DNA from: an uncultured Candidatus Saccharibacteria bacterium
GTDB lineage: Bacteria > Patescibacteriota > WWE3 > UBA101185 > UBA10185
Assembly (NCBI GenBank): GCA_964387275.1
Contig: CAYLVW010000002.1
Location: forward strand, 63,286-127,285
Direction of reading: 5' to 3'
DNA length: 64,000 nt
Below the pieces are notes generated by a model that was not told the DNA's origin, did no database searches, and worked only from the letters and a program-made list of their open reading frames with translations. The position numbers and the translations under genes were made by a program. This document shows, in pieces, positions 4,243-47,967 of this stretch. Positions within the stretch are counted from its first letter, which is position 1, and every line of letters begins with the position of its first letter.

Positions 4243-5187
4243 TTATAATGTTGGGTAAAGATAAATAATACCAAGGATGGAAAGCCCCCAAAGTACTATA
4301 GATGCCAGTAGTGGGAAATCTGAGAGCAGTACCCTCTCTGGAGACTCACCTTCTTCCTTCTCATATATAACATAGAGGTACCTTGCAACACCATATATCA
4401 CAAACGGAATTGTTAACATCATCCACCTTGGGCTACTAAGAATGGAGGGTAGTATATCTTTTAACCTATCAGTGGTTGTGTCGGGAGATATCTGAAAAGC
4501 AAACAATGAGTAGGTAATAATACATAAACTTGAGGACATAGAAATCATACTGTCTAAGAGAGTGTCTGGGTAGTGACGTAGTGTTTGTCTAGTAGACCCT
4601 TCTTCAATTAATTTCATATGTTTTTTAAGAAGAGTTCTTTCGGACCGTCTTTTACCAAAAGCTAGCAATAAAGATAATCCGATAGTTGCTAAAATCAACC
4701 AAGAGGATAGAGAGGTGTTGGTGGCAAACCCACCTGCGAACACTCTCAAAACAAAACCAGACCCTACAGCTAAAGAATCAAGAATAATTACATTCCTTAA
4801 ATACAGTGAGTAAGTTAGCTGAAGTATTATATAAATCATTAAAGCAACGGTGAAGAAAGTTCCTACACTAAACATACCAAAGTACAAACTAGATAGCATA
4901 AGAACAAAAGCGACAATCCAAGCTAATTTCTCTGAAAGTTTGCCAGAAGCAATAGGTCTATTTTTCTTTACAGGGTGTAGTCTGTCTTTAGGAGCATCTA
5001 TAAGATCATTCATTATATAGGTGGCAGACGAAACAAGACAGAAAACTAAAAATGCTGTTAAAGCTTGCGAAAATACCTTTTCATCAAAAAGATTCCCAAA
5101 AAATAGAGGGGCTGCAAAAAGGGAAAAGTTTTTCAGCCATTGACGAGGCCGCACTGTCCTAATAATTTGATACAGTTTTTCAGTCAT
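4243..5187 (-). CDS. UbiA-family prenyltransferase, decaprenyl-phosphate phosphoribosyltransferase (DPPRS)-like
   Basis: Contains NDLIDAPKDRLHPVKKNRPIASG, which is the NDxxDxxxD motif plus an RPIA(S/A)G segment, and has multiple TM helices. The start is placed at the internal MTEKLYQ (ATG at 5187), which leaves a 7-nt gap to the upstream gene. Confidence 0.65.
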   Translation of the reverse strand: MTEKLYQIIRTVRPRQWLKNFSLFAAPLFFGNLFDEKVFSQALTAFLVFCLVSSATYIMNDLIDAPKDRLHPVKKNRPIASGKLSEKLAWIVAFVLMLSSLYFGMFSVGTFFTVALMIYIILQLTYSLYLRNVIILDSLAVGSGFVLRVFAGGFATNTSLSSWLILATIGLSLLLAFGKRRSERTLLKKHMKLIEEGSTRQTLRHYPDTLLDSMISMSSSLCIITYSLFAFQISPDTTTDRLKDILPSILSSPRWMMLTIPFVIYGVARYLYVIYEKEEGESPERVLLSDFPLLASIVLWGLSILGIIYLYPTL

Positions 5188-6973
5188 TGTTACTATGATA
5201 TGGGTTTTCTCCGGTACATGCAAATTCGTAAGACCTGTAATCCCTATGCTCACTGCGTAAATACTTTATCTGCTTTAGGTACTTAAATCTCTCCCTGCGG
5301 AAGTAAGAAAACCTTGTACCTAGTTCTGACTCCACTTCACACAGTTTTTTCATAAACAACTGATCCAATTTTATTAAATTGTTAATAGATTTGGGCAAAA
5401 CCAATTTAAAGTAACTTTCAACAGAAATACTATTGTATCTAGAGTAATAGGACCTAACCACATTAACACCGTGTGAGGTATCATCAAAATAGTCGCTTAA
5501 GTCATCGAGATACTGCCTAATAATGAGTTGTATATCAAATAGGCAGGAAAAAACATTCGATATTGCGCAACGAGAAGAAAAAATGTAGTAGATAATAAAC
5601 CTGGATGAAATAGACGCCAGCTTACCTTTACTTAATAATGCCAACATCAACTTATTTATACCTGGGGCAACAATACCTATAAATTGATACTCAAAAGTTA
5701 AAGCTTTAATACAAGACACTAAGAAACGCTGGAAACTTTTGTGAGAATATTTATCTAAAACTTTTGAAGAGTAATCTAAATATGATTTCATGTAGTCCTT
5801 ATACATCAAAGATGTCACAAATATATTTCCTTTTGATTCATCCAAAAAATTATCAAGATCCGTAAATAAAGAAAATCCAACTACATTTAACATAGCTAGT
5901 GTATCTACCATATCTTTCGGTATAGAATTTCCCACTTCCCCAGGAAATGAGTTAAACAAATAGGTCGGCTCCATAAAACTATTAACCATACCGGTAGAAA
6001 TTTCTATAGGTAGGGTAGGTTTTACGATAAATTTTTGATGGTGGTTAATAAGTATTTTGCGGCACCTATTTTCCGCGGTAATTATCGAATTTTTATGTAT
6101 TAAAAGCATTTTTGCTGCTGTATCAACTGCAAACGAACCTACATAGGTATTAACACCGCCGACACTTCTTTCTATAAACAAACTAATAGGCAACTCCCCA
6201 CATGCGACAAAATTAGGATCACGCCGTAAATTATTCAGTGTGTTGCTATACAAGGGTGTAAATCTCTTAAGAAACTGTAAAGATAATAATAAATATGTGG
6301 TTTCAGTTTTATCTAAATTGGCTTTATTACTCAAGGCATTCTCAATTATGCTAAACAGCTTCGAATTACTTTTGTTGGTCAAAACTTCTGAAACTCTCGA
6401 TAGTAAAAAAACCTTAAAACTTAGGTTGCTATAGTACTTTGACTCTAAAGAACCGTTTTGAACTAACCTATTTAAAAATTTAATTAACCCCTCTGGGTAC
6501 AACTTACTCTTGATCAAAGTGTATAAAATGTTAGCGTTAACAAAAAGATCTGGATCTTCTTGGTTTTTGGTAATCCAAGTGTGATAAGGACCTCCAAACT
6601 CTATTGAATTTTTTAACAACAATTCTATGTAATCCCAACGTCTATTATTTAATAAATCAAGCCCATATATTCCGACAAAAGTGTCATCTAAATCATCTGG
6701 ATAAATAGGGTTTTCAAAATGGTAATTCAGGGTTAGTTTATGCTTGATATAAGTTTGAGTGATCTTATGTTTAAGTTTCTTGTACAAGGCGCTGTCTTCA
6801 AACCCAGAATCTCTTAGGAGCATTAATACTAAGTAATTAATAAAAGCATTTGAAGTTACCTCAGCACCAAAATTCACACGCATACTGATGGATTCAAATA
6901 CACCAGAAGAATTAGCTTTGGTAGAAAGTAAATTATATAACTCAGTTAACAATCGGTTGTCTGTGTACATCAA
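5180..6973 (-). CDS. Hypothetical 597-aa protein with a class II terpene cyclase-like DxDDT motif (alpha/alpha-toroid-like)
   Basis: IYPDDLDDTFVGIYGL aligns residue-for-residue with the squalene-hopene cyclase active-site segment YYPDVDDTAVVVWAL. There are no TM helices, and QW repeats are not clearly recognisable. Confidence 0.4.
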   Translation of the reverse strand: MMYTDNRLLTELYNLLSTKANSSGVFESISMRVNFGAEVTSNAFINYLVLMLLRDSGFEDSALYKKLKHKITQTYIKHKLTLNYHFENPIYPDDLDDTFVGIYGLDLLNNRRWDYIELLLKNSIEFGGPYHTWITKNQEDPDLFVNANILYTLIKSKLYPEGLIKFLNRLVQNGSLESKYYSNLSFKVFLLSRVSEVLTNKSNSKLFSIIENALSNKANLDKTETTYLLLSLQFLKRFTPLYSNTLNNLRRDPNFVACGELPISLFIERSVGGVNTYVGSFAVDTAAKMLLIHKNSIITAENRCRKILINHHQKFIVKPTLPIEISTGMVNSFMEPTYLFNSFPGEVGNSIPKDMVDTLAMLNVVGFSLFTDLDNFLDESKGNIFVTSLMYKDYMKSYLDYSSKVLDKYSHKSFQRFLVSCIKALTFEYQFIGIVAPGINKLMLALLSKGKLASISSRFIIYYIFSSRCAISNVFSCLFDIQLIIRQYLDDLSDYFDDTSHGVNVVRSYYSRYNSISVESYFKLVLPKSINNLIKLDQLFMKKLCEVESELGTRFSYFRRERFKYLKQIKYLRSEHRDYRSYEFACTGENPYHSNND

Positions 6974-19322: not shown

Positions 19323-19589
19323 ATGTATCAGTTAATTGATTTCTTTGCGGAGTGGTGTGGCCCATGCCATGCTATGAAGCCAGTATTTGAAGAACTATCA
19401 AAAGAGTATTCAGGAAAAGTTGGCTTTAAATCTGTGGATGTAGATGCGGAGATGCAACAAGCAGGTCAGTTTGGTGTTTCTTCCATACCTACCTTTGTGC
19501 TATTAAAAGACGGTAAAGAGGTTTCTAGAAAAATAGGAGCCTCATCAAAAGAAGCTATGAAAGCTTGGATCGATTCCAACACAAAATAG
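19323..19589 (+). CDS. trxA: Thioredoxin
   Basis: WCGPC active site at FFAEWCGPCHAMKPVFEEL; 88 aa. Confidence 0.8.
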   Translation: MYQLIDFFAEWCGPCHAMKPVFEELSKEYSGKVGFKSVDVDAEMQQAGQFGVSSIPTFVLLKDGKEVSRKIGASSKEAMKAWIDSNTK

Positions 19590-19739
19590 CTTAAGGTTGG
19601 AAAAGCCAAGACAGACTCTGGGGACTAAACCCAAGTCTCTTTCTTGCAAGTGGAAGCTTAAGCTCTCGTCTCTTGGTTAAAAATCTAGAGAACCACTAAT
19701 ACAAAATAAAGTAGATAGTTAATGAAAGGACACTGCCCA

Positions 19740-20819
19740 ATGGCAATAAAAGTAGCAATAAATGGTTTCGGAAGAATAGGAAGAGCTGCCTTTAAAATAG
19801 CTCAATCAAAACCAGAACTAGAAGTTGTAGCGATTAATGATCTTGCTAATGCAAGAATACTTGCTCAATTACTTAAATATGATACTGCCTACAAGATATT
19901 TGATAAAGAAGTGGGGGTAGAAGAAGATGGAAAGTATACTAATATAACCCACAATGATGGAAATAAAGATTTCTTTAAGCCCACTAGTTCAAAAAACTAC
20001 TTGGTGGTTGAAGGAAAAAAAATCCTAATTACTGCTGAAAAAGAACCAAATCTTCTGCCATGGAAGGAACTAGGTATAGATGTGGTTCTTGAATGTACCG
20101 GTAGATTTACAGACCATGATAGCGCACAAGCTCATCTACAAGCTGGGGCAAAAAAGGTACTCATATCAGCTCCGGCAAAGGGAGATAAAACACAAATATT
20201 TTTGATGGGAGTTAATGAAGATAAGTATTTTATGAATGATTTGGTGTCAACAGCATCATGTACAACAAACTGTATTTCACCAGTAGTATCAATAATTCAC
20301 AATAAATATAAAGTTTTAAAATCCGTTATGACAACAGTACACGCCATAACAGCAGAACAAAACATTGTGGATGGACCACCACCAGCAAGACACCCAGATA
20401 TGAGAAGGGCTAGAGCTTCTGGACACAATATGGTTCCTACAACTACAGGGGCAGCCAAAGCTACCACCGAGATTATTCCCGAGCTAAAAGGTTTATTTGA
20501 TGGTATTTCAATAAGAGTTCCGATAATTACGGGTTCTTTATCTGATATAACAATGGTGCTGGAAAATAAAACTACTGTAGACGAGATAAACAAACTTTTT
20601 CTAGAAACAAAAAACAACCCAAGATATAAAGGTATTATAGATGCAACTTATGAACCACTTGTATCAAGCGATATAATTGGAAACCCCCACTCAGCAATTG
20701 TGGATCTAAGTATGACTAAAGTAGTTGGTGGAGACTTAGTAAAAATACTGGCTTGGTACGACAATGAATGGGGCTACAGTAACAGGTTAGTGGAAATGGC
20801 TATTCTTGTAGCTAAATAA
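19740..20819 (+). CDS. gap: Glyceraldehyde-3-phosphate dehydrogenase (type I)
   Basis: NGFGRIGR Rossmann motif, the ASCTTNC catalytic cysteine segment, and WYDNEWGYSNR. The start is placed at MAIKVAING because AAGGA lies 8 nt upstream; the ATG at 19722 has no SD. Confidence 0.9.
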   Translation: MAIKVAINGFGRIGRAAFKIAQSKPELEVVAINDLANARILAQLLKYDTAYKIFDKEVGVEEDGKYTNITHNDGNKDFFKPTSSKNYLVVEGKKILITAEKEPNLLPWKELGIDVVLECTGRFTDHDSAQAHLQAGAKKVLISAPAKGDKTQIFLMGVNEDKYFMNDLVSTASCTTNCISPVVSIIHNKYKVLKSVMTTVHAITAEQNIVDGPPPARHPDMRRARASGHNMVPTTTGAAKATTEIIPELKGLFDGISIRVPIITGSLSDITMVLENKTTVDEINKLFLETKNNPRYKGIIDATYEPLVSSDIIGNPHSAIVDLSMTKVVGGDLVKILAWYDNEWGYSNRLVEMAILVAK

Positions 20820-20861: not shown

Positions 20862-21818
20862 ATGAAAAAACTAACTGATGCCAAAATAGACTCTAACACT
20901 AAGGTATTTGTAAGATTAGATTTGGATGTACCGATAAAAGATGGAGTTATTCAAGATAATTCCAGAATCAAAGCAGCAATACCCACATTAAAATATCTAA
21001 GAGACCGAGGCGCTCAAATTGTTATAGCAGGGCACATGGGGAGACCAAAGGACAACGACCCAAAACTCAGCACCTCACAGCTAAAACCCTTGTTCGATAA
21101 AATGTTTAAAAATTACCCTTATAAACTCCTAGAAAACCTTAGATATGATGCAAGAGAAGAAACAGACTCCCCAGAGTATGCTAAAGAACTGATAGGTACC
21201 TGTAATATGTACGTAAATGAGAGCTTTGCAACATCCCACAGATCTCATACCTCAATTGTGTCTATCCCTAAACTAATACCAGGGTACGCTGGAATTAATT
21301 TCCAAAAAGAAGTAGAAAATATCAATAAAGTATTACAAAATCCAGAAAGACCGCTAACAGCCATAGTTGGTGGAGCAAAAATTGATAGTAAAAAACCTGT
21401 GATTAAAAAATTCCTAAAAGTGTGTGACCATGTATTGGTGGGAGGTAAAATTGGGTTTGATTGGGATGAGGACGTACCAACCAACCTCCATTTACCAAAA
21501 GACTATGAGGAAGATAAAAAAGACATAGGTATGCAAACGGTCATTTATTTCTCAGAAATAATAAAAAGATCAAAAACTGTTATCTGGGCAGGACCTATGG
21601 GACTTTTTGAACAGCAGATGTTTGCAAAAGGAACCCAACTTATTGCTGAGGCAGTTATTGCATCTGGTGCCTATTCAATAATTGGGGGCGGCGACACTGC
21701 TAGTGCAATTGAAGATTTTGGACTAACTGATAAATTCTCGTTTGTATCAACAGGTGGAGGAGCACTACTAGAGCTTATTATTAATGGCACGCTTCCAGGC
21801 GTAGAGGCTGTTAGCTAA
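20862..21818 (+). CDS. pgk: Phosphoglycerate kinase (compact, 318 aa)
   Basis: VRLDLDVP, VNESFATSHRSHTS, AIVGGAKIDSKK, and IIGGGDTASA...STGGGALLE. Confidence 0.85.
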   Translation: MKKLTDAKIDSNTKVFVRLDLDVPIKDGVIQDNSRIKAAIPTLKYLRDRGAQIVIAGHMGRPKDNDPKLSTSQLKPLFDKMFKNYPYKLLENLRYDAREETDSPEYAKELIGTCNMYVNESFATSHRSHTSIVSIPKLIPGYAGINFQKEVENINKVLQNPERPLTAIVGGAKIDSKKPVIKKFLKVCDHVLVGGKIGFDWDEDVPTNLHLPKDYEEDKKDIGMQTVIYFSEIIKRSKTVIWAGPMGLFEQQMFAKGTQLIAEAVIASGAYSIIGGGDTASAIEDFGLTDKFSFVSTGGGALLELIINGTLPGVEAVS

Positions 21819-21822
21819 ATTT

Positions 21823-22089
21823 ATGTCAAAAGTCCTGAAAGTAACATTCCCAGAAAATTGCATTGGCTGTGAGATGTGTGTAATGGAGGCTCAAAAGCAA
21901 ATAGGCAAAGTTGGGCTAAATGGAGCGCTAGTTAGAGTACTAAAATCGAAGTCTGAAACCGGGCTAGATTTCTTAGTAGAAGTCGACCCACAAGTCAATG
22001 AGCTTGATATAAAAAAAATAGCAAGAATATGCCCTAAAAGTGTATTTACAATAGAGGAAAAGGAAACCGACGATGGCCTTACTAGCTAA
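21823..22089 (+). CDS. Single-cluster [4Fe-4S] ferredoxin-like protein (Pyrococcus Fd-like architecture)
   Basis: CIGCEMCV...(about 50 aa)...ICPKSVFTIEEKE, a CxxCxxC...CP arrangement with an ITIEE-like end. Confidence 0.5.
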   Translation: MSKVLKVTFPENCIGCEMCVMEAQKQIGKVGLNGALVRVLKSKSETGLDFLVEVDPQVNELDIKKIARICPKSVFTIEEKETDDGLTS

Positions 22090-22966
22090 AAAAGTTTTGT
22101 ACATAAATCTCGAAGAAAAAACTTACGAATTAAAATCATTAACTGATTTATATAAATATATAGGTGGTGTAGGAATTGGGATAAAGTTGCTTCAAGAAGA
22201 GGCACAATATGACCCGATAATTTTCTCAACAGGACCTTTGAATGGGTTTTTCCCCTATGCTTCAAAAACATCGGTAGTATTAAACAGTGATGGGGTGATT
22301 GAGGATATTTATATAGGAGGTACTTTATCAAGCAGGATAAAATTTGCTGGACTGGACTCAGTAGTTTTAAGAGGCAGGTCTGAGGAACCTATAACCATAG
22401 AGATAATTGATGATGTTGTCAATTTTCATACCCCAAATATAGATGTTACAACACTAGGGTTACCCGGAAAACGAAGTACACTTACTTGGGACAATAAGGA
22501 TAACTCAAAAACAGATACAATCGTAGAGACAGGCCCAGAAACCAACGAAAAAAAGTTCTTACTTGATGGATATTTTTCAGCCCCAGAAAAGATACTAGAA
22601 AAAAAACTCTTACTAAAAAATATAAAAGGGTTGTCTATCACAGGTAACAAAACGATAGACATAAAAGACACAGAGGAATATGACAGACTGTACAAATTAC
22701 TCCTAGGAAGGATAAAAGATATGTGGATAGAGCCAAACAAATACCCATCTTGTAGCGGATGCCCATTAGGGTGTGTGGCATCCAAAAGAGGTGAAATTGG
22801 CGGAAATATAATTACCCACTCTCTTGTAGCATGTTCTTTCGCTGAAGGAATATATTCGGATCTTGGAATAACTTTTGCGTGCTTAAATTCACTTGGATAT
22901 CACTACAGACATGAAGATATACAAGCACTGCCGAAACTTATCGACCAAATCCTTAGAAAATTTTAG
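22073..22966 (+). CDS. Truncated aldehyde:ferredoxin oxidoreductase (AOR)-family protein: N-terminal AFOR_N domain plus a CxxCxxxC cluster motif, lacking the tungstopterin catalytic domains
   Basis: KVLYINLEEKTYE, YIGGVGIGIKLL, PIIFSTGPLNG and KFAGLDSVVLRGRSEEPITIEI parallel P. furiosus AOR residues 1-130. CSGCPLGC matches the AOR 4Fe-4S ligand spacing. The protein is only 297 aa. Confidence 0.5.
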   Translation: MALLAKKVLYINLEEKTYELKSLTDLYKYIGGVGIGIKLLQEEAQYDPIIFSTGPLNGFFPYASKTSVVLNSDGVIEDIYIGGTLSSRIKFAGLDSVVLRGRSEEPITIEIIDDVVNFHTPNIDVTTLGLPGKRSTLTWDNKDNSKTDTIVETGPETNEKKFLLDGYFSAPEKILEKKLLLKNIKGLSITGNKTIDIKDTEEYDRLYKLLLGRIKDMWIEPNKYPSCSGCPLGCVASKRGEIGGNIITHSLVACSFAEGIYSDLGITFACLNSLGYHYRHEDIQALPKLIDQILRKF

Positions 22967-22976
22967 AATTCTATTA

Positions 22977-23630
22977 ATGAAAAAAACTATAATCGCAAAC
23001 TGGAAAATGAATATGGATAAAAAAGGGGTGCTATCCTGGTTTGAAGAATTCCAACATCTATACACCCAGATAGACTTTGACAAAAAATCTATAATAATTG
23101 CCCCAAGTTTTACCCACCTAGAACTTGTTAAATCATTGATACAGAAACATGCATATAAAAATATCAGCCTAGCTGCTCAAGGCGCATCAGAATTTGAAAA
23201 AGGTGCATACACATCTCAAATCTCCATACCGCAAATAAAAGACTATTGTGATTACATAATTGTTGGACATAGTGAAACAGGAATTGATATTCATAAAAAA
23301 ATCTTAATCTCATCAAAAGCTCAGGAAATGGGAATTACACCTATAATATGTTTTACAAATCTCAGTGATGTTCCTACAACTTTGGAACCTTACGAATACG
23401 TAGCTTGGGAAGACCCAAATAACATCTCAAATAATGGCGTGTACAAACCAAAAGATCACAATGAAATAAAAGAAGCGCTCTCAAGTTACAAAAGTAAGAT
23501 AATATATGGTGGCTCAGTTAATGAAACAAACATCAGCAGCCTCTCAGAAATAACTAATATAAGTGGTTTCTTGGTTGGAAATGCAAGTTTAAACCCACAA
23601 AGCTTTTATGAGATAATGAAGCTCTGTTAG
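22977..23630 (+). CDS. tpiA: Triosephosphate isomerase (divergent)
   Basis: IIANWKMN, IIVGHSETG, YGGSV and FLVGNASL. The start is trimmed to MKKTIIANWKMN (ATG at 22977). The usual EPxWAIGTG loop is replaced by WEDPNNISNNG. Confidence 0.75.
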   Translation: MKKTIIANWKMNMDKKGVLSWFEEFQHLYTQIDFDKKSIIIAPSFTHLELVKSLIQKHAYKNISLAAQGASEFEKGAYTSQISIPQIKDYCDYIIVGHSETGIDIHKKILISSKAQEMGITPIICFTNLSDVPTTLEPYEYVAWEDPNNISNNGVYKPKDHNEIKEALSSYKSKIIYGGSVNETNISSLSEITNISGFLVGNASLNPQSFYEIMKLC

Positions 23631-37126: not shown

Positions 37127-37579
37127 ATGGTATTAGACTCAAAGCAGACAAGTGCTCCCACACAAAATGATCAGGCTGTAAACTCAGGGGTAACCCAGGC
37201 ACCGTCGCCAAATAACTTACCTACAAACCCAGCTACCGCAACCAGAAATACTATCAATTCTTTGTATGGTGGGTATGTGGAACAGGAATCACTACAACAA
37301 GCAACTGACCTAGAGAATATATCAATAGTCCCAGAAATAGTAAAAAACCCCGAAACTAATATACAAATAGAACCGACTATTCAACAAGAACCAAAAAAAT
37401 CCCCCACCACGCCAGAGGTGCAAATAGGTCAAAATGAAAAAGTCCCTAATGTAGAGGATCATTCAACTCACAAAGTGCAGCAGCACAGTGTAAATGCAAA
37501 AGCAGATGCGGTCACAAGCTTTGCAGACAAGGACGAAGAGGAATTTATTACAGGAATAGTACAACACCATGCAAACTAA
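37127..37579 (+). CDS. Hypothetical low-complexity protein (Gln/Pro/Thr-rich)
   Basis: ORF that overlaps the next gene's start by 11 nt. Confidence 0.35.
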   Translation: MVLDSKQTSAPTQNDQAVNSGVTQAPSPNNLPTNPATATRNTINSLYGGYVEQESLQQATDLENISIVPEIVKNPETNIQIEPTIQQEPKKSPTTPEVQIGQNEKVPNVEDHSTHKVQQHSVNAKADAVTSFADKDEEEFITGIVQHHAN

Positions 37580-39977
37580 TGACGTAGGATACATTGTTTT
37601 TTGGATAGTACTGTATCTAACACTTCTTTTCACCGTAATATTTAGTATTGTCTATCTCATATCCAGCTGGTGGCAAAAGCAAATGGATAAAAAGTACGGA
37701 TATGATTTTACGTTTCTTCAAGTTAAAATGCCTCCTTTAAATGAAATAGAAATCAAAAGTGCCGAACAATTCTTTGCAAGTCTTTCAGGATTTAGACGTT
37801 CATTTTGGGACTTTTTGCTAAAGGGAGAGTATAGGATCTCTTTTGAAATTGTATCTAAGGTAACTGGTATAGGGTTTTATGTTGTAGTGCCTGACGAAAT
37901 TGTCACTCTGGTAGAAAAACAAATTAATGGTGCGTACCCTGAAGCAGAAATAGATATTGTAGATCCAAATGAAATATGGGATAGAGGGACATATACCTCA
38001 GTGGCAGAACTTAAACTTGCGGGAGCCTCTTACTACCCAATAAAAAACTACGAAGATCTAAAAAGTGATGCTCTTAGCGCAATAACATCTACAATGAGCA
38101 AGTTACAAGATAATGAGGTCTTAGCAGTCCAGTATGTAATACAATCTGCAGGAGAATCATGGAAAAGAGAGGGCGAGAGGTTCGTGTCTGATGTAAAAAA
38201 CAAAGGAGCAAATCCAGAAAAGAAAACCAATATAGATACGTCATTTCTTGAAGGAGTAGAGAAAAAAATTGTTAAACCAGGTTTCTATGTCTCAATAAGA
38301 GTAATATCTATTGCAGACAGTAAAGTTGCGGCAGAGACACACATTAGAAATATTGTGTCCTCATTTGATCAATTTACAGATTTTAAATACAACAAGTTCA
38401 AACGTACTTGGCACTTTTCATCAAAAAAACTTGTAGATAATTTTATACACAGAAGAATATCTAATTTTGAAATAACAATTCCCATATTTGAAGTCAATCT
38501 TTTCAGATCTTCTTCTATTCTAAATATCGCAGAATTAGCAACAATATTTCACTTCCCTAACAAAGAGATTAAAACACCTAATATAATTTGGTTGCACTCA
38601 AGAAAATCTCAAGCACCAACTAATCTACCAGATGAAGGGCTTTATCTGGGTAAAAGTATATTCAGAGGGGTAAATAAAAAAGTTTTCATGGCTCCTAAGG
38701 ATAGAACAAGACACTTCTATATAATAGGCCAAACGGGTACAGGTAAATCCGAGTTTATGAAGTCTTTAGCATTACAAGATATCGCAAATGGTGAAGGACT
38801 AGCTTTTATCGATCCACATGGAAGTGACATAGACGATATCCTGTCTAAGATACCAGATCATAGAAAAGATGACGTAATACTGTTCGATTTATCAGATACA
38901 GAAAGACCCTTAGGGTTGAATCTACTGGAAGCAGAAAACGAAGAACAAAAACATATGATTATAAACGCGTTCATTGCACTTCTCTACAAACTTTATGACC
39001 CAAATCACCAAGGTATTATGGGACCTTTGCTTGAAAGAGCAATTAGAAATGTTATGTTAACAGCAATGGAAGACCCAAATGCAACTATGGTAGATGTAAT
39101 GAGACTTTTAATAGACCCAAAATATGTACAGAAGTTCATCCCCCTAATTAAGGATCCTATGGTTAAAAAATACTGGACCGATGAAGTTGCTAAAACCTCC
39201 GAAAACAGAAAAGGAGAAACAATGGGTTATTTTGTTGCTAAATTTGATAGGTTTGTAACGGACAAAACAATGAGAAATATTTTAGGACAACCAAAGTCGT
39301 CTTTCAGATTCTCGGACATAATGGCTCAGAAAAAAATTCTGCTTGTAGACCTATCAAAAGGTAAAATTGGTGAAGAAAACTCAAACTTCATTGGCTTATT
39401 ACTTGTTCCAAGAATACTAGCAACAGCATTAGCAAGAGCAAAATTCTTAGGAAAAGAGGATTTCCCAGATTTCTTCTTGTATGTAGATGAGTTTCAAAAC
39501 TTCGCAACACCTGATTTTGCAGTTATTCTATCCGAAGCAAGAAAGTACAAACTCAATCTTGTAGTGGCACATCAATTTATCTCACAATTGTCAGATGAAA
39601 TAAAAACAGCTGTCTTTGGTAACGTAGGTACAATGACAGTTTTTAGAATTGGTGTTGATGATGCCGAGTATCTTGAATCTCAATTTGAGCCCACTTTCAC
39701 AAAAACTGACCTAGCTAATAATCCAAACGGAGCAGCTTATGTAAAACTCCTTGTTAATGGGCATCCTACCCCACCTTTTTCAATGTCAGTAGATTGGGAC
39801 ATGATTACAAAAACACAAAAAAGCAGTGAAATGACAAACTACATAAGAGAAATGTCCCGAACAAAGTATGGAACACCTGTAGCAGAAGTTGAAGAGTATA
39901 TTAACAGAAGGGCGGGTCTTTATGATAAAGAAACCACACCAGAAGCACCGGCAAAATTGCCCAAACTTCCTTTCTAA
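37569..39977 (+). CDS. Membrane-anchored VirD4/TraG/TraD-type coupling-protein-like ATPase with a roughly 350-aa N-terminal extension
   Basis: N-terminal TM. Walker A is FYIIGQTGTGKSEF...AFIDPHGSD, which resembles TrwB (GATGTGKS...VDPNGD). The TraG-D_C-like region is FFLYVDEFQNF...KLNLVVAHQFISQL...AVFGNVGT. Confidence 0.55.
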   Translation: MQTNDVGYIVFWIVLYLTLLFTVIFSIVYLISSWWQKQMDKKYGYDFTFLQVKMPPLNEIEIKSAEQFFASLSGFRRSFWDFLLKGEYRISFEIVSKVTGIGFYVVVPDEIVTLVEKQINGAYPEAEIDIVDPNEIWDRGTYTSVAELKLAGASYYPIKNYEDLKSDALSAITSTMSKLQDNEVLAVQYVIQSAGESWKREGERFVSDVKNKGANPEKKTNIDTSFLEGVEKKIVKPGFYVSIRVISIADSKVAAETHIRNIVSSFDQFTDFKYNKFKRTWHFSSKKLVDNFIHRRISNFEITIPIFEVNLFRSSSILNIAELATIFHFPNKEIKTPNIIWLHSRKSQAPTNLPDEGLYLGKSIFRGVNKKVFMAPKDRTRHFYIIGQTGTGKSEFMKSLALQDIANGEGLAFIDPHGSDIDDILSKIPDHRKDDVILFDLSDTERPLGLNLLEAENEEQKHMIINAFIALLYKLYDPNHQGIMGPLLERAIRNVMLTAMEDPNATMVDVMRLLIDPKYVQKFIPLIKDPMVKKYWTDEVAKTSENRKGETMGYFVAKFDRFVTDKTMRNILGQPKSSFRFSDIMAQKKILLVDLSKGKIGEENSNFIGLLLVPRILATALARAKFLGKEDFPDFFLYVDEFQNFATPDFAVILSEARKYKLNLVVAHQFISQLSDEIKTAVFGNVGTMTVFRIGVDDAEYLESQFEPTFTKTDLANNPNGAAYVKLLVNGHPTPPFSMSVDWDMITKTQKSSEMTNYIREMSRTKYGTPVAEVEEYINRRAGLYDKETTPEAPAKLPKLPF

Positions 39978-39980
39978 TAT

Positions 39981-41738
39981 ATGAGTAAAAAAAATAAACT
40001 ATTTGAAGTAACAGAAGGTACAACAAGCGCAGAAGTAAGAGAACGTACTACGTTACTTGAAACGTCTGAAGACGAAATAAAATATGAACCCAACGCTATA
40101 GCAGAAAGAATATTAGAACGCATAGAAAAAATAAAAACAGGCAATACAGCCTTGGACAAAGCACTCCAAGATGCGGCTGATAAATTGGACGCACATGTAC
40201 ACGGACTAAATAGGTATAGCGAAGGAAGTGAAAAAAGTAGAGATGCGTACCATGAGCTTGAGAAGGATAACCCAGAAAAACTCCAAGAGGTATTTGGAAC
40301 CTACAAAACAATGGTAACAGACCACTTACTAATTGTAGAAAAGCTGTTAGATCAAACAGAAACAAATCCCCAGGGAGCCGCACTAGCAGTAGAACTTATA
40401 ACTGCTTCCACTGAAAACAGAAGAGGAAAAGAAGAGGAAACAAGAAAAAGGTTAAGAGAGTTTGGCATAAGCCAAGGGTTACCTCAAGGCGGAGAAGAGC
40501 AAGTAGTCGAACTACTTAATAAAATATCAGACGGTAGAATTGAATCCTTTGCAGACTATCTTGAGACAAGTGGCTTTGATTCTATTACAGTGGAAAACTC
40601 AGCAAACACCCATAGGGAAAACCTAGGAAAAATTATTAGTCTATCGGAGCGATTTGTAGAACCAAAGGATTATGATGATATATTTGCAACAACCACAAAA
40701 GTAAAAACTAAAGTTAAGGTAGAAAAAACATCCACCGAAGCCCACACAGATGAAACACTGAATAATTTAACAGTTGAACAAATACGTGAACGTATTGCAA
40801 AGCAATGGGATACAGAAAACCAAGACGGCAGTAACCTAATAGACACAACAAGTGGACCAAAACTAGCAGAGCGAACATTTCTCGGGGGAGAAAAGCTAAG
40901 GAAACCACGACAGTTTGCACAAGTTTTTGAAAGGTATATCACTACAAAAGATAAGGATGATATAACCAGATACGATAGAGTTGATGTACCTGTAATAACC
41001 TTGTACGCCGAAAGACAATTAAGTGATTTCACCAAATCAGAAAAAATCTACTCAAATAGAAAAGACCCCGTTGTAAGGATCCCTGTTCTTAATTTTGATC
41101 CAAAAGATTTTGATGAAATAGCCTTTATGAATGAGATGTTAAAAATGGCTCGAAATAACCCTGATGGCAGCTTCGATGTATTTGTAGCAAATGATAGTGG
41201 TAAAGCTGAAACATTTAGAGTGAATGCAGAAACGTATAACGCAATGAGGTATGTGGTACAACGATCAGTGGAATCCCATGCAAAAAAGGGCATAACTTAT
41301 AATCCAGAAGAGATACTTAAAAAGGGTTTAAAAAAGCTAGGACCAAATGAAACGACAACTGAAGAAGAAATAGAGATTGAAACAGAAACAATTACTACAG
41401 AAAGTCAAAACCCTAACGAATGGGTAAATCACAAGCGAGCTCTAGCTAGAATGAAAAGTTTAAGGTCTATTGCAGGCAAAAAATTAGATTTTACGGAAGA
41501 AGAAATGGATCAAACCGGAGAGTCTCTTACCAATTTGGAAAGGATATATACTGAATTTACATCACACATAGGAAGAGTGGAATCGTACTACTATATAGCC
41601 CAACAAAGATTAAAAACTCTTAGTGGAGTTTCTAAAGGACATCCTAGATACGAAGAAGGCTTGGAGATCTACTTACAAAACTATGTGTTGGAACTTGGAG
41701 AAATGTCCATAACATTAAAAAATGCTACAACAACTTGA
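39981..41738 (+). CDS. Hypothetical acidic cytoplasmic protein (585 aa)
   Basis: Start is 4 nt after the upstream stop. No recognisable domain. Confidence 0.4.
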   Translation: MSKKNKLFEVTEGTTSAEVRERTTLLETSEDEIKYEPNAIAERILERIEKIKTGNTALDKALQDAADKLDAHVHGLNRYSEGSEKSRDAYHELEKDNPEKLQEVFGTYKTMVTDHLLIVEKLLDQTETNPQGAALAVELITASTENRRGKEEETRKRLREFGISQGLPQGGEEQVVELLNKISDGRIESFADYLETSGFDSITVENSANTHRENLGKIISLSERFVEPKDYDDIFATTTKVKTKVKVEKTSTEAHTDETLNNLTVEQIRERIAKQWDTENQDGSNLIDTTSGPKLAERTFLGGEKLRKPRQFAQVFERYITTKDKDDITRYDRVDVPVITLYAERQLSDFTKSEKIYSNRKDPVVRIPVLNFDPKDFDEIAFMNEMLKMARNNPDGSFDVFVANDSGKAETFRVNAETYNAMRYVVQRSVESHAKKGITYNPEEILKKGLKKLGPNETTTEEEIEIETETITTESQNPNEWVNHKRALARMKSLRSIAGKKLDFTEEEMDQTGESLTNLERIYTEFTSHIGRVESYYYIAQQRLKTLSGVSKGHPRYEEGLEIYLQNYVLELGEMSITLKNATTT

Positions 41739-42280
41739 TGAATCAAATGACGCTTCTAGAATCCTATGAAGACCTACCAGAAGCTGAAAAGAAAGCGATT
41801 AGAAATCAAATAGTAACATTGCTAAGTTCAATAGATGGAATGGTCCTTGAGCAAAATCCAAACTGGAGAGGTGGTCTTAGGGAAATAAACTCTGTGGATG
41901 CAACTAACCCAAACCCAATAGAAACTAAAGACCCTGTATCACCGGCACCTATATCAGAAGACAGAGCCAAAAATACAGAAGACACAGCAACTGTACAAAC
42001 CCCACAATCTGAGACCGAGGCAGATACTATCCCGCTACTACAAGAGGCAGAAGAAACAACTACTATAGTAGAACCTATAGGTCAAGAAGTGGAAAGAGCA
42101 CAACAACCTGTGTTAGAAACAGTAAGCACTATAACAGAAAAAGGGCCAGTAACTGAAAACGAGCAGGAAGCACAAGAAACGACGCCAAAATCACGAAAAA
42201 CTACTAAAAGAAAAGGTAAGAATATCAGAAAAGAAGCAGACAGACAAAGACGGCAGGCGCGACGGGAAGAAGCCTATTAG
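41735..42280 (+). CDS. Hypothetical acidic protein with an Arg/Lys-rich C-terminal tail
   Basis: Overlaps the upstream stop by 4 nt. It ends KSRKTTKRKGKNIRKEADRQRRQARREEAY. Confidence 0.4.
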   Translation: MMNQMTLLESYEDLPEAEKKAIRNQIVTLLSSIDGMVLEQNPNWRGGLREINSVDATNPNPIETKDPVSPAPISEDRAKNTEDTATVQTPQSETEADTIPLLQEAEETTTIVEPIGQEVERAQQPVLETVSTITEKGPVTENEQEAQETTPKSRKTTKRKGKNIRKEADRQRRQARREEAY

Positions 42281-42311
42281 TTGATTAATCCATAATGCTA
42301 TAATCAATTTA

Positions 42312-43502
42312 ATGCTCAATCTACCTTTTTTTAAGACAACTTCCAAAAACAAATTCCTAACAATAGACTTCGGATCAGATAGCGTTAAATGCTTGGCTTT
42401 TTACAATGACGGAGAGATAAATAAAATTATTGGGTTTGGTAAACAACAAGTGGAAAAAGGACATATCCGATCAGGAGCTGTAGTTGATATAGAAGGCGTA
42501 GATCTAGTACTAAAAGAAGCTATTGCTCAAGCAACCCAAAATTCAGGAGAATCTATTGACCAAGCCATTATAGGTCTAAATGGAACATTTATCATCAACC
42601 AATTAGTTACAGCCAGGTTACTTAGAGGTAAAAGTTCTGATATATCAAATAATGAAATGGACGATATATATGAAAGAACGGTTAAATCATCAACAGAACA
42701 AGCTTACAGTGAACTAGTAAAGACCACTGGTAGCAATGATATGGATTTGGAACTCGTAACAGCGGAGAAAGCGTATGTGAGAGTTGATGATAGACCTATC
42801 CACAAAGATACAAAACCTGCAGGAAACAAAGTTGAAATGGCTGTATTCTCATCTTTTGCACCAAGCTATCAAATGAAAAATTTATCAAAGTTATTAAAAC
42901 GCAGTGGTTTAAAAATAATAGGTGTGGTACCGGAAATGTATTCGTTGGTTAAGTCTATCAACCATAAAAAGATTGGATCAAATGATTACCTAATAATAAA
43001 CATTGGTAGCGATAAAACTGAGATTGGCATAGTCTTTGGGGGAAATTTAATTTCCACCAAATCACTTCCTATTGGTGGATATCACTTTACTTATCAAATG
43101 AGTCATGTGTTAGGTTTATCAATAAAAGAAGCTGAAAATTTGAAACGTTCATATTCGCAAGGAAAGCTGCCTAATAGTGAAAGTCTAACAGTTCAAAACT
43201 GTTTTAGTGAAATACTGGAAACCTGGTTAAGTGGTATTGAATTAACTTTTGGAGAATTTACAGGAGTAAAAACTTTCTCATCTAAAATATACTTAACCGG
43301 TGGGGGAATTCATCTTCCTGACATATATGATTACCTAACTAGTGAACCTTGGACCAAATCGATACCATTTAAAGACACGCCAACATTCGAAAAAGTGACA
43401 GCCAAAGATCTACCAGGCATTCAAGATGAAACACAGATGGTAAGTGGGCCTGAGTGGGTAATGCCTGTTTCACTAAGTAATATATTTCATAATCTTGTAT
43501 GA
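42312..43502 (+). CDS. Actin-like ATPase of the FtsA/PilM family
   Basis: Phosphate-1 motif FLTIDFGSDSVKCLAF, and KIYLTGGGIHLPDI near the C-terminus. Confidence 0.5.
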   Translation: MLNLPFFKTTSKNKFLTIDFGSDSVKCLAFYNDGEINKIIGFGKQQVEKGHIRSGAVVDIEGVDLVLKEAIAQATQNSGESIDQAIIGLNGTFIINQLVTARLLRGKSSDISNNEMDDIYERTVKSSTEQAYSELVKTTGSNDMDLELVTAEKAYVRVDDRPIHKDTKPAGNKVEMAVFSSFAPSYQMKNLSKLLKRSGLKIIGVVPEMYSLVKSINHKKIGSNDYLIINIGSDKTEIGIVFGGNLISTKSLPIGGYHFTYQMSHVLGLSIKEAENLKRSYSQGKLPNSESLTVQNCFSEILETWLSGIELTFGEFTGVKTFSSKIYLTGGGIHLPDIYDYLTSEPWTKSIPFKDTPTFEKVTAKDLPGIQDETQMVSGPEWVMPVSLSNIFHNLV

Positions 43503-45016
43503 CTAAAATAGAACTAGAAATTTTTGACGACCTAATAGTTACACTAAACAAAATAAGAGCGGTTAATGATTCTGGGATTGAGCTCCACATACCAGAAGGC
43601 TCTCCTATTTTGGACAACATTGTTTCATTAAAACTTCTAAAAAAAGAGGCAGAAAACATGCAAAAAATCCTGCACTTTGTTACAAAAGATGTAGCAGGTC
43701 TTGAACTTTTATCGCAACTACAAGAAGAACAAACAGATACTTTAGTGGAGCAAGAAGTAGATAAAATATCAGAAGACGGCGCAATAGGAACAATCACAAA
43801 AAAACCTGCGTTTAGATTCCCTACATTAAAACTCCCAAAACTGCACGCAGGACTCCCAATAATTGCATTAATAATTGTAGTTGTTGGGGGAATCTTACTT
43901 GCAGGTGGTTGGTATTTGTATAACTTGCCGAAGGCTGAAGTCACAATTGTGGTAAGCTCAGAATCACTTTCCAAAGGATTACCGGTTAAAGTGAAAGACG
44001 GGGTTTCTACTTCAGCAGAACAAAAAACTCTAAGAGGGTACATATTTAAATCAACCCTAACAGAAACAAAAGAAGCGGATACTACAGGAGAGAAAATTGT
44101 AGGAAAAAGCGCCAAAGGTAAAATAAAGATCTTTAATAAAACTACTGAAGAAAAAACTTTTAAAAAAGGACAAACTGTAACATACGAAGATGACGAAGAA
44201 AACGATTTTACATTTACGACTGATGAAGAAATAACAGTACCTGCAAGAGTAGATAATATTGATGGGACTATTACCTCCGGGGAAAAGGAGGTTTCTGTAA
44301 CCGCATCAAATATAGGTGAGAACTATAATATTAAGTCTGGGAAAACACTTAGCGTTAAGGATCAGAAAAGCGCAGATTTTACCGCAATTTCTGTTGAAAA
44401 CTTCACTGGAGGAAAGAGTGAAAAAGTTAAAGTGGTCGCTCAATCCGATCTAACTAAATTATCAAGCGATGTAACAACCGCATTAAAACAAAAAGCTCTT
44501 GAGGATTTGAAATTCAAATTAGGTCTTACCCAAAAAATAATTGAGGGAACCATACAAACTAAGGTTGTTGAAGAAGCATTCAATCATAAAGTAAACGAAG
44601 AATCTGAAAAAATTATACTTACACAAAATGTCGAAGCCAGCGCCTTGGTATATTCTTCGGTAGATATGGATGAACTGCTAGATAATCTATTGGAGAGCTT
44701 TGTACCAAGTGGGTATGTGCTATCTTCAAAAGATAAGGTTGTTAATATTGAGGTTTTAGGAAACTCAGCAACAACAGTGTTAAAAGAAAACGAAGCTGAC
44801 GTACAACTTACTATTAAAACTTATATAGTCGCTGATATTACAGAGGAAGGCATTAAAGATGCGATAAAGGGAAAGGGGGTAGAAGAGGCTAAAAAAGTGC
44901 TAGACGAAGTTAAAAACGTTAACAGTTACGCTTTAAATCTAAACCCTTCTATCCCACTACTAAGTTTTATACCTAAAGACACCAATAGAATAACAGTTGA
45001 TATCAAAAGGGAGTGA
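43499..45016 (+). CDS. Hypothetical bitopic membrane protein (TM near residue 115, large Lys/Thr-rich ectodomain)
   Basis: Contains LPIIALIIVVVGGILLAGGWYLY. Overlaps the upstream stop by 4 nt. Confidence 0.4.
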   Translation: MTKIELEIFDDLIVTLNKIRAVNDSGIELHIPEGSPILDNIVSLKLLKKEAENMQKILHFVTKDVAGLELLSQLQEEQTDTLVEQEVDKISEDGAIGTITKKPAFRFPTLKLPKLHAGLPIIALIIVVVGGILLAGGWYLYNLPKAEVTIVVSSESLSKGLPVKVKDGVSTSAEQKTLRGYIFKSTLTETKEADTTGEKIVGKSAKGKIKIFNKTTEEKTFKKGQTVTYEDDEENDFTFTTDEEITVPARVDNIDGTITSGEKEVSVTASNIGENYNIKSGKTLSVKDQKSADFTAISVENFTGGKSEKVKVVAQSDLTKLSSDVTTALKQKALEDLKFKLGLTQKIIEGTIQTKVVEEAFNHKVNEESEKIILTQNVEASALVYSSVDMDELLDNLLESFVPSGYVLSSKDKVVNIEVLGNSATTVLKENEADVQLTIKTYIVADITEEGIKDAIKGKGVEEAKKVLDEVKNVNSYALNLNPSIPLLSFIPKDTNRITVDIKRE

Positions 45017-46554: not shown

Positions 46555-47967
46555 TTATCTTCTACCGCCCTTTTTTTCACCCATTATCATTGCTTCAACT
46601 TTTGAAGGAGCAGAATTCGCAAAATAGAAACCCATCATTAAAATAGCAGGTAACATTACGAGAGTTACCATACCCCCAGCTGTATAACCAAATATAGCAA
46701 CACCAAAGAAGTTATCTACCCCAGTCATTACCTGAACAAAAATATTCATCGCAATCAAAAACGTCATTGCCAAGACCCCAGTCATAGCAGGTAAGCTTAG
46801 CATGTAAACTGCCATCTGCTTAAACCAATCAATGGTCATATTATCATTTCCCGGTATAGCACCAATAACAAATATTATAGGGGAGGTTATTATAGCCACT
46901 ATCATTTTGACGTAAGTAAAACCAATTTTTACAGCAATCCAAAGCATCCCAACCAAAGCCATTACTGCAAGAATTATTGGAACAAGAAAGATAAAACCCA
47001 CAGTCATTAAACCTAAAGAAGCCCCAGTTAAAAAGAAATAGAATATAGGTAAAGGCCCTAGATGAGAAAATAGGTCTGCTGCCTGTTGTAAGGAAGGTGT
47101 GTCACCTCCAGTCACAGCCGCTGTCATGATAATAGGAACTATACTTACCATTAAGGATCTACCGATAGTGGTCATAGTGGCCCCAATAGGATAACTGAAA
47201 GTTATTAGTATAATGGCTATAATAATTCTTGGTATTGCAAATTGAACTGTTACGATTGTTTGCTGATCTATCTTTCTCCTATTCATTATCATAAAACCAA
47301 GCACTAACATCACTATCGCTAATAAGCCGTAAGAAATGTTTCTAAACAACTTCCATGTACCTAAAACCATAGAAAGGGCTACTTGGTTACCCGGATCTCC
47401 GTAGGTTTGAGCTAAGGCTTTACCAATAAAAGGCACGTGGGCAACGGTGTCGTTAGCGTAGTAAGCTAGATTTACAGGAACCAAATCTGTGTGGGTAGTG
47501 CTGTTCACAAAACCTACCAACCCAGCAAAACTACCACCAACAGTGGATTTTGGATCCACTAAAGCGTAGTTATCAACAAACGCTGATGATATGTAACCAG
47601 GCTTTAAAGAATTTGCCAAATTCTGACAAAACTCTGCATCATATGTATCTGCTGTAGAGGGATCTAAACTGACTAAAGAGGGATCTACATCGTGAATAGC
47701 TTGAGCGCACCCACAAATTTGATCTATATTACCACCAAAAAAAGCTGCGCTAGGAATCTCTTGTATAAGAGTGGTTGCAATATTCATGGTAGTTCGGGTT
47801 ATATCTAAGTTTCTGAATATATCTACAACATTTATGTAGGTGTTCTCTCTGCTGTTGCAAGTAGCAACAACCTGAGCAGAAACACTTGGAGTTAAGTACA
47901 AAGCGATGGAAGTGAAAAGCAGTGTGAATACAGAGTATTTAATTAGACTTATTCTCTCAGTTAACAT
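46555..47967 (-). CDS. VirB6/TrbL-like polytopic membrane protein (signal peptide, roughly 200-aa ectodomain, at least 5 TM)
   Basis: Assigned on topology only. It has a signal peptide MLTERISLIKYSVFTLLFTSIALYLTPSVSAQ and a Cys-containing ectodomain, followed by multiple TM helices. Confidence 0.4.
   Translation of the reverse strand: MLTERISLIKYSVFTLLFTSIALYLTPSVSAQVVATCNSRENTYINVVDIFRNLDITRTTMNIATTLIQEIPSAAFFGGNIDQICGCAQAIHDVDPSLVSLDPSTADTYDAEFCQNLANSLKPGYISSAFVDNYALVDPKSTVGGSFAGLVGFVNSTTHTDLVPVNLAYYANDTVAHVPFIGKALAQTYGDPGNQVALSMVLGTWKLFRNISYGLLAIVMLVLGFMIMNRRKIDQQTIVTVQFAIPRIIIAIILITFSYPIGATMTTIGRSLMVSIVPIIMTAAVTGGDTPSLQQAADLFSHLGPLPIFYFFLTGASLGLMTVGFIFLVPIILAVMALVGMLWIAVKIGFTYVKMIVAIITSPIIFVIGAIPGNDNMTIDWFKQMAVYMLSLPAMTGVLAMTFLIAMNIFVQVMTGVDNFFGVAIFGYTAGGMVTLVMLPAILMMGFYFANSAPSKVEAMIMGEKKGGRR

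Follow-up and report, generated by a model that had tools for sequence, protein, structure and literature searches.

A putative pterin-free derivative of the two-subunit AOR/WOR enzymes in the glycolytic gene array of WWE3 bacteria

Enzymes of the aldehyde:ferredoxin oxidoreductase (AOR)/WOR superfamily are defined by a tungsten-pterin site. A 2026 classification sorts more than 4,000 members into 92 clades and five classes and appears to treat a pterin-containing large subunit as common to all of them (PMC13328260). A review names R182, D338, T243, E313, Y427 and H448 (numbering of Pyrococcus furiosus AOR, Pf AOR) as pterin-phosphate contacts or second-shell, mechanistically important residues (PMC12096430). 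The GOR of Caldicellulosiruptor bescii, whose large subunit belongs to WOR clade 20, functions in glycolysis (PMC13328260, PMC12096430); we liken it to the gene pair described below by layout and not by sequence. Here we describe two overlapping genes in a 64,000-nucleotide stretch (the window; contig CAYLVW010000002.1) from an uncultured 'Candidatus Saccharibacteria' bacterium of the WWE3 lineage. The first, fd, encodes a ferredoxin-like small subunit, and the second, mini-AOR, encodes a 297-residue derivative of the AOR/WOR large subunit. Both open reading frames (ORFs) lie between pgk and tpiA in a gap-pgk-tpi array, where the earlier note, a model's reading of the window's letters, had placed them.

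Judged from its sequence, mini-AOR belongs to the AOR/WOR superfamily through its descent, its domain 1 and its cluster site, and is without the defining pterin domains and catalytic residues. The evolutionary and structural case for this protein is strong. We found no description of a truncated AOR in the candidate phyla radiation (CPR), Patescibacteria or Katanobacteria, or of proteins with PF02730 only, in full-text literature searches.

Retained and lost parts of the two subunits

The features of the pair, in window coordinates, are as follows.

21823..22089, + strand: fd, ferredoxin-like small subunit of 88 residues with a single putative [4Fe-4S] site
21859-21861, 21868-21870, 21877-21879 and 22030-22035, + strand: fd ligand codons for C13, C16, C19 and C70-P71, respectively
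22073..22966, + strand: mini-AOR, 297 residues, AOR/WOR large-subunit derivative
22073..22708, + strand: AOR domain 1 (beta-sandwich), mini-AOR residues 1-212, from the profile alignment and confident AlphaFold2 strands and helices
22499..22546, + strand: disordered insertion, residues 143-158 (NKDNSKTDTIVETGPE...), the only place with pLDDT <50
22751..22774, + strand: C227-x2-C230-x3-C234, predicted to supply three [4Fe-4S] ligands and corresponding to Pf AOR C288/C291/C295
22832..22834, + strand: C254, the cysteine of 'HSLVAC', predicted to be the fourth cluster ligand and corresponding to Pf AOR C494 (DxxGLC)
22880..22918, + strand: C270 and H280-E281-D282, conserved residues that are not cluster ligands of AOR

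Residues 7-120 of mini-AOR matched the Pfam family AFOR_N (PF02730) with E = 4.7e-22 and 79 bits against a cut-off of 29.8, and the same scan gave no match to AFOR_C (PF01314) even at E ≤ 1. Comparison with NCBIfam yielded a partial match to the generic AOR model only. Positions 9-192 of a profile of the mini-AOR family aligned to Pf AOR 9-224, which is the whole of domain 1 save for a short internal deletion, and the matches of this profile in the PDB were confined to AOR-family chains (1AOR, FOR, WOR5, BamB, AorB and others). The AOR likeness had been claimed for the first 130 residues; the homology itself stands, and the claimed extent is too short, as nearly the whole protein consists of AOR segments.

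The CxxCxxxC motif aligned to Pf AOR 284-298. The assignment of C254 is transitive: residues 228-270 of mini-AOR align to residues 487-527 of a longer relative (P0169), and a further relative (P0364) then leads to C494 of Pf AOR. Because residues 228-270 reach the DxxGLC494 region through these intermediate sequences, C254 is the predicted fourth ligand. Across 148 family sequences, down to 28% identity, C227, C230, C254 and H280 were present in every member and C234 in 147. Several non-ligand residues were nearly as constant (C270, 146/148; K65, 143/148; E281, 142/148; D282, 131/148), and E77 and D78 were the other conserved polar residues. H280 is common to the long WWE3 forms described below and absent in outgroup AORs, and C270 is specific to the short form.

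Relative to Pf AOR, the segments at approximately 225-284, 299-486 and 531-605, about 320 residues in total, are excised. They hold the pterin-binding motifs and the positions of T243, E313, D338, Y427 and H448. In domain 1, F168...E-K-I-L-E stands in place of the pterin-phosphate loop R182...R186-G-G-x-G. MAFFT placed H448 and K450 ambiguously, all sequences having gaps there, and we used a phmmer pairwise alignment and alignment A2 instead. The predictions that a CxxCxxxC motif and an AOR N-terminal domain are kept and that the tungstopterin catalytic domains are missing thus agree with the cysteine alignment, the AFOR_N match, the absent AFOR_C match and the excised residues.

An AlphaFold model computed from the 148-sequence alignment had a mean pLDDT of 91.6 and a pTM of 0.90. 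An earlier model based on 32 sequences had pLDDT <50 over residues 217-276, and the larger alignment resolved this cysteine region. Foldseek with the later model returned nine chains, all of the AOR family, with E values from 4e-15 (1aor, TMq 0.60) to 8e-12. The confident model and the AOR-only structural matches thus describe a predicted compact single unit, 'domain 1 plus cluster cradle'. As far as sequence and model go, essentially the whole of mini-AOR is built from retained AOR segments; the alignments show that the predicted full set of [4Fe-4S] ligands is kept and that the pterin and catalytic domains are lost. The low-complexity insertion at residues 143-158 was common only to the window genome and its closest relatives (P0002, P0003).

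The small subunit carries the motif C13-x2-C16-x2-C19...C70-P71. C13, G15, C16, C19, C70 and P71 were invariant across 28 aligned fd homologues, and only four cysteines are conserved, enough for one cluster. The fd of the window scored 19.6 bits against Pfam Fer4_15, under the 22.4 threshold; among the 28 family members, six matched Fer4_15 at E ≤ 0.01 and 15 matched the generic Fer4. In all 82 loci examined, an ORF with CxxCxxC...CP stood directly 5' of the AOR-like gene, with CP changed to CV in one, and such a gene also adjoins the long and micro forms. By hhalign (probability 94%), fd aligned to residues 1-74 of the 139-residue small subunit of an outgroup AOR, whose second-cluster cysteines are missing in the WWE3 fd. 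The top PDB matches of the fd profile were weak (E from 5e-4 to 9e-3): HycB3, 9MQX_E, which is the Fe-S subunit of a bifurcating AOR complex, and WOR5-S (6X6U_B), all partner subunits of AOR-type enzymes. Because of these AOR-partner matches, the hhalign placement and the cysteines kept beside Cys-less long forms, we consider, with moderate confidence, that fd probably descends from the polyferredoxin small subunit WorS, reduced to one cluster, and is not a free Pyrococcus-type ferredoxin. The description 'Pyrococcus-Fd-like ferredoxin' is a loose one, given the better alignment to the N-terminal half of a multi-cluster subunit.

Conservation and descent within WWE3

Our protein search covered 5.8 billion proteins, the HMMER search covered 1.84 billion cluster representatives and the genome scan used one genome per species. 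The protein search returned 332 mini-AOR homologues, the best 120 of which were all 276-309 residues long with AFOR_N only; those with names came from candidate division WWE3 or Patescibacteria metagenome-assembled genomes (MAGs). The exhaustive HMMER search gave about 40 short-type clusters, beyond which scores fell to full-length AORs. From the genome scan, we recovered 80 loci, nearly all labelled WWE3 or as generic Patescibacteria or 'Saccharibacteria' MAGs, including the complete genome RAAC2_WWE3_1 (locus L011). NCBI annotates these proteins as 'AOR N-terminal domain-containing protein' and some JGI records as 'aldehyde:ferredoxin oxidoreductase', a label that is misleading for metabolic reconstruction.

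Pairwise Nei-Gojobori dN/dS over 43 moderately diverged locus pairs had medians of 0.042 for mini-AOR, 0.049 for fd, 0.044 for gap, 0.057 for pgk and 0.108 for tpi. Purifying selection on mini-AOR is as strong as that on gap. The notion that a full-length AOR is decaying here into a remnant or pseudogene, or was truncated as an assembly artefact, has in its favour the half-normal length and the sister lineages that carry a full-length gene at this locus. It is the least probable reading of all: the ORF is intact, the same architecture of about 280 residues recurs in the 332 proteins and in 80 loci of independent assemblies, dN/dS is at the level of gap, the in-frame deletions precisely spare the four ligands in a confidently predicted fold, and there is no room for lost frames because tpi begins 10 nt downstream. 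The earlier note had offered 'remnant' and 'repurposed' as alternatives; more than 300 intact orthologues with essentially invariant cluster cysteines speak against the former, and we count the latter as correct.

The nearest full-length relatives are 537-578 residues long, carry AFOR_N and a weak AFOR_C (E from 1e-10 to 1e-26) and come, at least in part, from WWE3 MAGs. Their locus reads trx-gap-...-pgk-fd(79 residues)-AOR545-lytR-holA, with tpi not adjacent. Full-length versions at the same position, which the earlier note had proposed to look for, therefore exist: sister WWE3 lineages have AOR-like genes that separate fd from lytR. These long forms have already changed R182 to F and D338 to W, Y or N and have lost the 'ARHSH' motif (H448); they retain T243, E313, Y427 and usually all four cysteines. 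Among them the four cysteines are all-or-none. In four long WWE3 forms (P0164, P0168, P0171 and P0297; loci L084 6001-7653 and L088 10001-11659), all four cluster cysteines were lost together, and the fd partner (78-79 residues) retained CxxCxxC...CP where checked (P0164 in L084, P0297 in L088). This all-or-none loss points to a possible cluster-independent role in those lineages.

A rarer lineage has micro forms of 198-217 residues, one of which (P0190) is labelled WWE3. Their loci read pgk-fd(79)-micro and fd(80)-micro-tpi (L089 6001-6648; L091 466-1119). Micro forms keep the first ~100 residues of AOR domain 1 and the Cys module; one (P0230) is without CxxCxxxC.

Outgroup relatives at about 30% identity are 578-607 residues long and come from Clostridia, Peptococcaceae, Treponema, Desulfonatronovibrio and others, each AOR being preceded by an overlapping 127-139-residue multi-Fer4 gene. 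The current WOR classification terms this WorS-WorL arrangement 'Class II' (PMC13328260). At one clostridial outgroup locus (L093 4702-10248), the full-length AOR and its 139-residue Fe-S subunit are flanked by ThiF-like and MobB genes and an ECF/ABC transporter, and an 83-residue ORF there may be a ThiS-like 'WorX'. This neighbourhood is a normal pterin-enzyme context, unlike the WWE3 loci.

A neighbour-joining tree of 275 shared columns with 100 bootstraps, a simple and rough distance tree, grouped all WWE3 forms together (99/100) and mini with micro forms (96/100). Micro forms were nested within mini forms, and the short forms were nested among the long forms, which made up a paraphyletic grade. 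Tree and synteny together indicate a single descent of the short forms from full-length genes at the same locus. Cofactor binding was probably weakened or lost first, and the useless domains would have been trimmed later.

Operon context and candidate roles of the pair

The genes around the pair are co-directional and closely packed.

19323-19589: trx
19722..20819, + strand: gap, opening gene of the close-packed array (GAPDH; Pfam Gp_dh_N E = 1.4e-32, Gp_dh_C E = 1.9e-50)
20862..21818, + strand: pgk, phosphoglycerate kinase (PGK), short 318-residue form (Pfam PGK E = 4.3e-89)
22977..23630, + strand: tpiA, triosephosphate isomerase (TPI; Pfam TIM E = 3.5e-36; gene call in the identical contig L001)

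The pgk stop lies 4 nt ahead of the fd start, the fd and mini-AOR ORFs overlap by 17 nt, and the probable true start of tpi is the ATG at 22977, 10 nt past the mini-AOR stop. Downstream of tpi follow lytR-cpsA-psr, a holA-like gene and sortase genes; the flanking genes were confirmed by Pfam. The usual order in the 80 genome loci was trx-gap-pgk-fd-miniAOR-tpi-lytR-holA-sortase. The tpi gene was directly 3' of mini-AOR in all but two loci, both ended by a contig edge; pgk was immediately 5' of fd, and gap upstream of the module, in most. In 13 of the 80, pgk was missing between gap and fd, which left the order gap-fd-miniAOR-tpi. Loci listed without pgk at the site (locus positions ~4400-6900) are L012, L013, L035, L038, L045, L057, L062 and L076-L082.

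Junction lengths, which rest on heuristically assigned start codons, had medians of -1 nt for pgk stop/fd start (60 junctions), -14 nt for fd stop/mini-AOR start (overlapping in 62 of 75 loci) and -2.5 nt for mini-AOR stop/tpi start. Over 18.5-26.5 kb, a scan for consensus promoters and terminators gave a lower number of promoter-like sites than shuffled sequence did, and no informative signal within gap..tpi. From this spacing, we infer that pgk, fd, mini-AOR and tpi are probably co-transcribed and translationally coupled. The operon structure suggests a functional coupling of the pair to glycolysis. This link is somewhat strengthened because pgk-fd-micro is kept at L089 despite different downstream genes.

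The pair would derive from a two-subunit (WorS plus WorL, 'Class II') tungsten AOR-family enzyme by reduction and loss of the pterin. Its large subunit would have shortened from about 585 to about 540 and then to about 280 residues, leaving domain 1, two short segments with the four cysteines and a few C-terminal helices, the ~320 residues with the pterin and substrate sites being gone. The small subunit would likewise have shrunk from a multi-cluster polyferredoxin of about 130 residues to a one-cluster protein of about 80. We propose that fd and mini-AOR form a heterodimer with two [4Fe-4S] clusters, which would no longer oxidise aldehydes or glyceraldehyde 3-phosphate (GAP) and would act as a low-potential electron-transfer module, a composite ferredoxin/adaptor, co-expressed with lower glycolysis in step with glycolytic flux. 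Electrons could plausibly come from pyruvate:ferredoxin oxidoreductase (PFOR) and pass onward to hydrogenase or another sink.

The WWE3 genome RAAC2, which has the mini form, encodes PFOR, an ADP-forming acetyl-CoA synthetase and a group 3b hydrogenase (PMC3812714). Its published electron-carrier list includes 'a ferredoxin oxidoreductase-like protein' and no ordinary ferredoxin (Kantor et al. 2013, PMC3812714); this entry is possibly the only mention of the protein in the literature. As RAAC2 has PFOR and hydrogenase and no ordinary ferredoxin is listed, a carrier from PFOR to a sink is the simplest model. We assign a probability of roughly 0.5 to the pair acting between PFOR and an electron sink as a pterin-free, low-potential carrier or adaptor. 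A scan of 30 large ORFs of the 64-kb window found no pterin or tungstate genes (moa, moe, mob, tup), PFOR, hydrogenase or other ferredoxins.

Several points weigh against a carrier. Cluster binding and heterodimer formation are predictions from sequence alone, and about 200 residues of AOR domain 1 are not obviously needed by a mere electron carrier. The conserved K65, E77, D78, C270, H280, E281 and D282 hint at a binding or catalytic site. Adjacency to glycolytic genes is weaker evidence of linkage because the entire trx-to-sortase block is syntenic across WWE3. Cluster-to-cluster transfer would not be essential in every lineage, because some Cys-less long relatives have a Cys-bearing fd.

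The same residues would fit a neo-functionalised enzyme, in which the exposed [4Fe-4S] cluster would be a new active site, possibly with C270, H280, E281, D282, E77, D78 and K65; the substrate would be triose-phosphate-related or another small molecule, and the small subunit would supply or remove electrons. The strong conservation of polar non-ligand residues (H280, C270, E281 and K65), the retention of about 200 residues of domain 1 at a dN/dS of 0.04 and the adjacency to pgk and/or tpi, which lasts through long, mini and micro forms and includes L089 with its otherwise different downstream synteny, all favour such an enzyme. However, catalysis without a pterin is unprecedented in the AOR family, the substrate-binding domain is gone, and H280 is already found in the long forms and is thus not a novelty of the short form. 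We regard this reading as possible but unlikely. Its bolder version, in which the pair would be the first pterin-less catalyst of the tungsten AOR/WOR superfamily and use the cluster and a Cys/His/Glu/Asp site on GAP, dihydroxyacetone phosphate (DHAP) or methylglyoxal, seems more doubtful; if true, the WWE3 glycolytic operon would hold an obligatory, previously unrecognised redox step.

Alternatively, the pair could be a non-redox structural or regulatory partner, a redox or O2 sensor or a scaffold that binds PGK, TPI or GAPDH, with the cluster as a sensor or structural element. The overlapping junctions with pgk and tpi, a PGK about 60 residues shorter than the Pfam profile, and the long relatives without cluster cysteines, which imply a role in the clade that does not depend on the cluster, would fit. 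Nevertheless, the near-absolute invariance of the ligands in the short form and in fd argues for a redox role, interaction with the glycolytic enzymes is without evidence, pgk does not adjoin in 13 of 80 loci, and the long-form loci are without tpi. We consider a partner of this kind improbable.

The glycolytic setting could also suggest a still functional ferredoxin-dependent GAP oxidoreductase, GAPOR- or GOR-like, bypassing GAPDH and PGK. The family does include archaeal GAPOR and the bacterial two-subunit GOR of C. bescii (PMC13328260, PMC12096430), and the module stands beside gap and pgk, with 13 loci lacking pgk at the site. This is very improbable: the tungsten-pterin and substrate-binding domains are missing, and gap and usually pgk are kept under strong selection in the same operon. 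Mini-AOR did not match the NCBIfam model of archaeal GAPOR (GAPOR_Arch, NF040818) at E ≤ 1, and the long WWE3 and outgroup relatives scored 28-44 bits against its cut-off of 1300; the link drawn in the earlier note to this enzyme is unsupported, the long relatives reaching about 30 bits. On the best explanation, mini-AOR would oxidise neither aldehydes nor GAP, and it is not a GAPOR.

A whole candidate-phylum lineage seems to have discarded the tungsten-pterin site and kept the iron-sulfur half of both subunits, with selection matching that on GAPDH and with both genes in the middle of the glycolytic array. The natural series of about 585, 540, 280 and 215 residues shows which part of AOR can stand alone. 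The pair is a candidate low-potential electron carrier of WWE3 fermenters and offers a small, easily expressed two-gene target for learning about redox balance in ultra-reduced CPR bacteria.

Neighbouring genes and comparison with known systems

The glycolytic neighbours have features of their own. The match of the window PGK to the Pfam PGK profile (379 positions) is split into three stretches, and the PGKs of related WWE3 loci have 336-344 residues versus 318 in the window. PGKs are typically about 390 residues long. Relative to these, the window protein seems to be without segments of both lobes, from a by-eye comparison with E. coli PGK. The NAD-binding domain of the window GAPDH (19722-20819, + strand) matched Pfam Gp_dh_N in two stretches and therefore probably contains an insertion of ~30 residues past residue ~70 (DGKYTNITHNDGNKDFFKPTSSKNY...). 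The window TPI is divergent, with a top NCBIfam equivalog score of 103 bits against a cut-off of 298, and tpi, with a dN/dS of 0.108, has about double the rate of gap, pgk, fd and mini-AOR. Some Katanobacteria TIMs group with archaeal sequences (Jaffe et al. 2020, PMC7304191).

Elsewhere in the window, six large ORFs of 362-597 residues were without a Pfam match at E ≤ 1e-5.

5180-6973, - strand: large ORF
39981-41738, + strand: large ORF
43499-45016, + strand: large ORF
46555-47967, - strand: large ORF
57970-59631, + strand: large ORF
62868-63956, - strand: large ORF

The ORFs at 37569-45016 have a HerA/DUF87-like ATPase and a PilM/FtsA-like protein as neighbours and possibly form part of a pilus or secretion cluster.

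Among the described systems, Class II WORs (P. furiosus WOR5/ASOR, PDB 6X6U/6X1O; C. bescii GOR) resemble the WWE3 pair in having the Fe-S subunit gene upstream of an overlapping large-subunit gene and a large subunit with AOR domain 1 and a C-x2-C-x3-C...C site; fd is weakly but repeatedly similar to WorS/HycB-type subunits. They differ in that the WWE3 large subunit is smaller by about 320 residues, the pterin and catalytic parts of domains 2 and 3, which makes a tungsten site impossible. WorS is described with four [4Fe-4S] clusters (PMC13328260) and has 130-190 residues, and the WWE3 fd has one predicted cluster in about 80.

The best single match is P. furiosus AOR (1AOR; Foldseek E = 4e-15, TMq 0.60; profile E = 5.5e-12), with an identity of 17-20%. 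It has 605 residues versus 297, and its R182, T243, E313, D338, Y427, H448 and K450 are absent or replaced in mini-AOR. Archaeal GAPOR (NF040818) shares the superfamily and the glycolytic context, but it is monomeric, of about 650 residues, and contains the pterin. Single-cluster ferredoxins (Fer4_15; Thermotoga/Pyrococcus type) are likewise small acidic proteins with CxxCxxC...CP, whereas fd has a spacer between the motifs about 25 residues longer and is always the overlapping partner of an AOR-like gene. The long WWE3 AOR-like proteins (e.g., P0162, P0273) are alike in their pgk-fd-X-lytR-holA locus, their partner of ~79 residues, their place in the 99/100 clade, H280 and the usually kept cysteines; unlike mini-AOR, they keep a weak AFOR_C, T243, E313 and Y427, and tpi is not adjacent.

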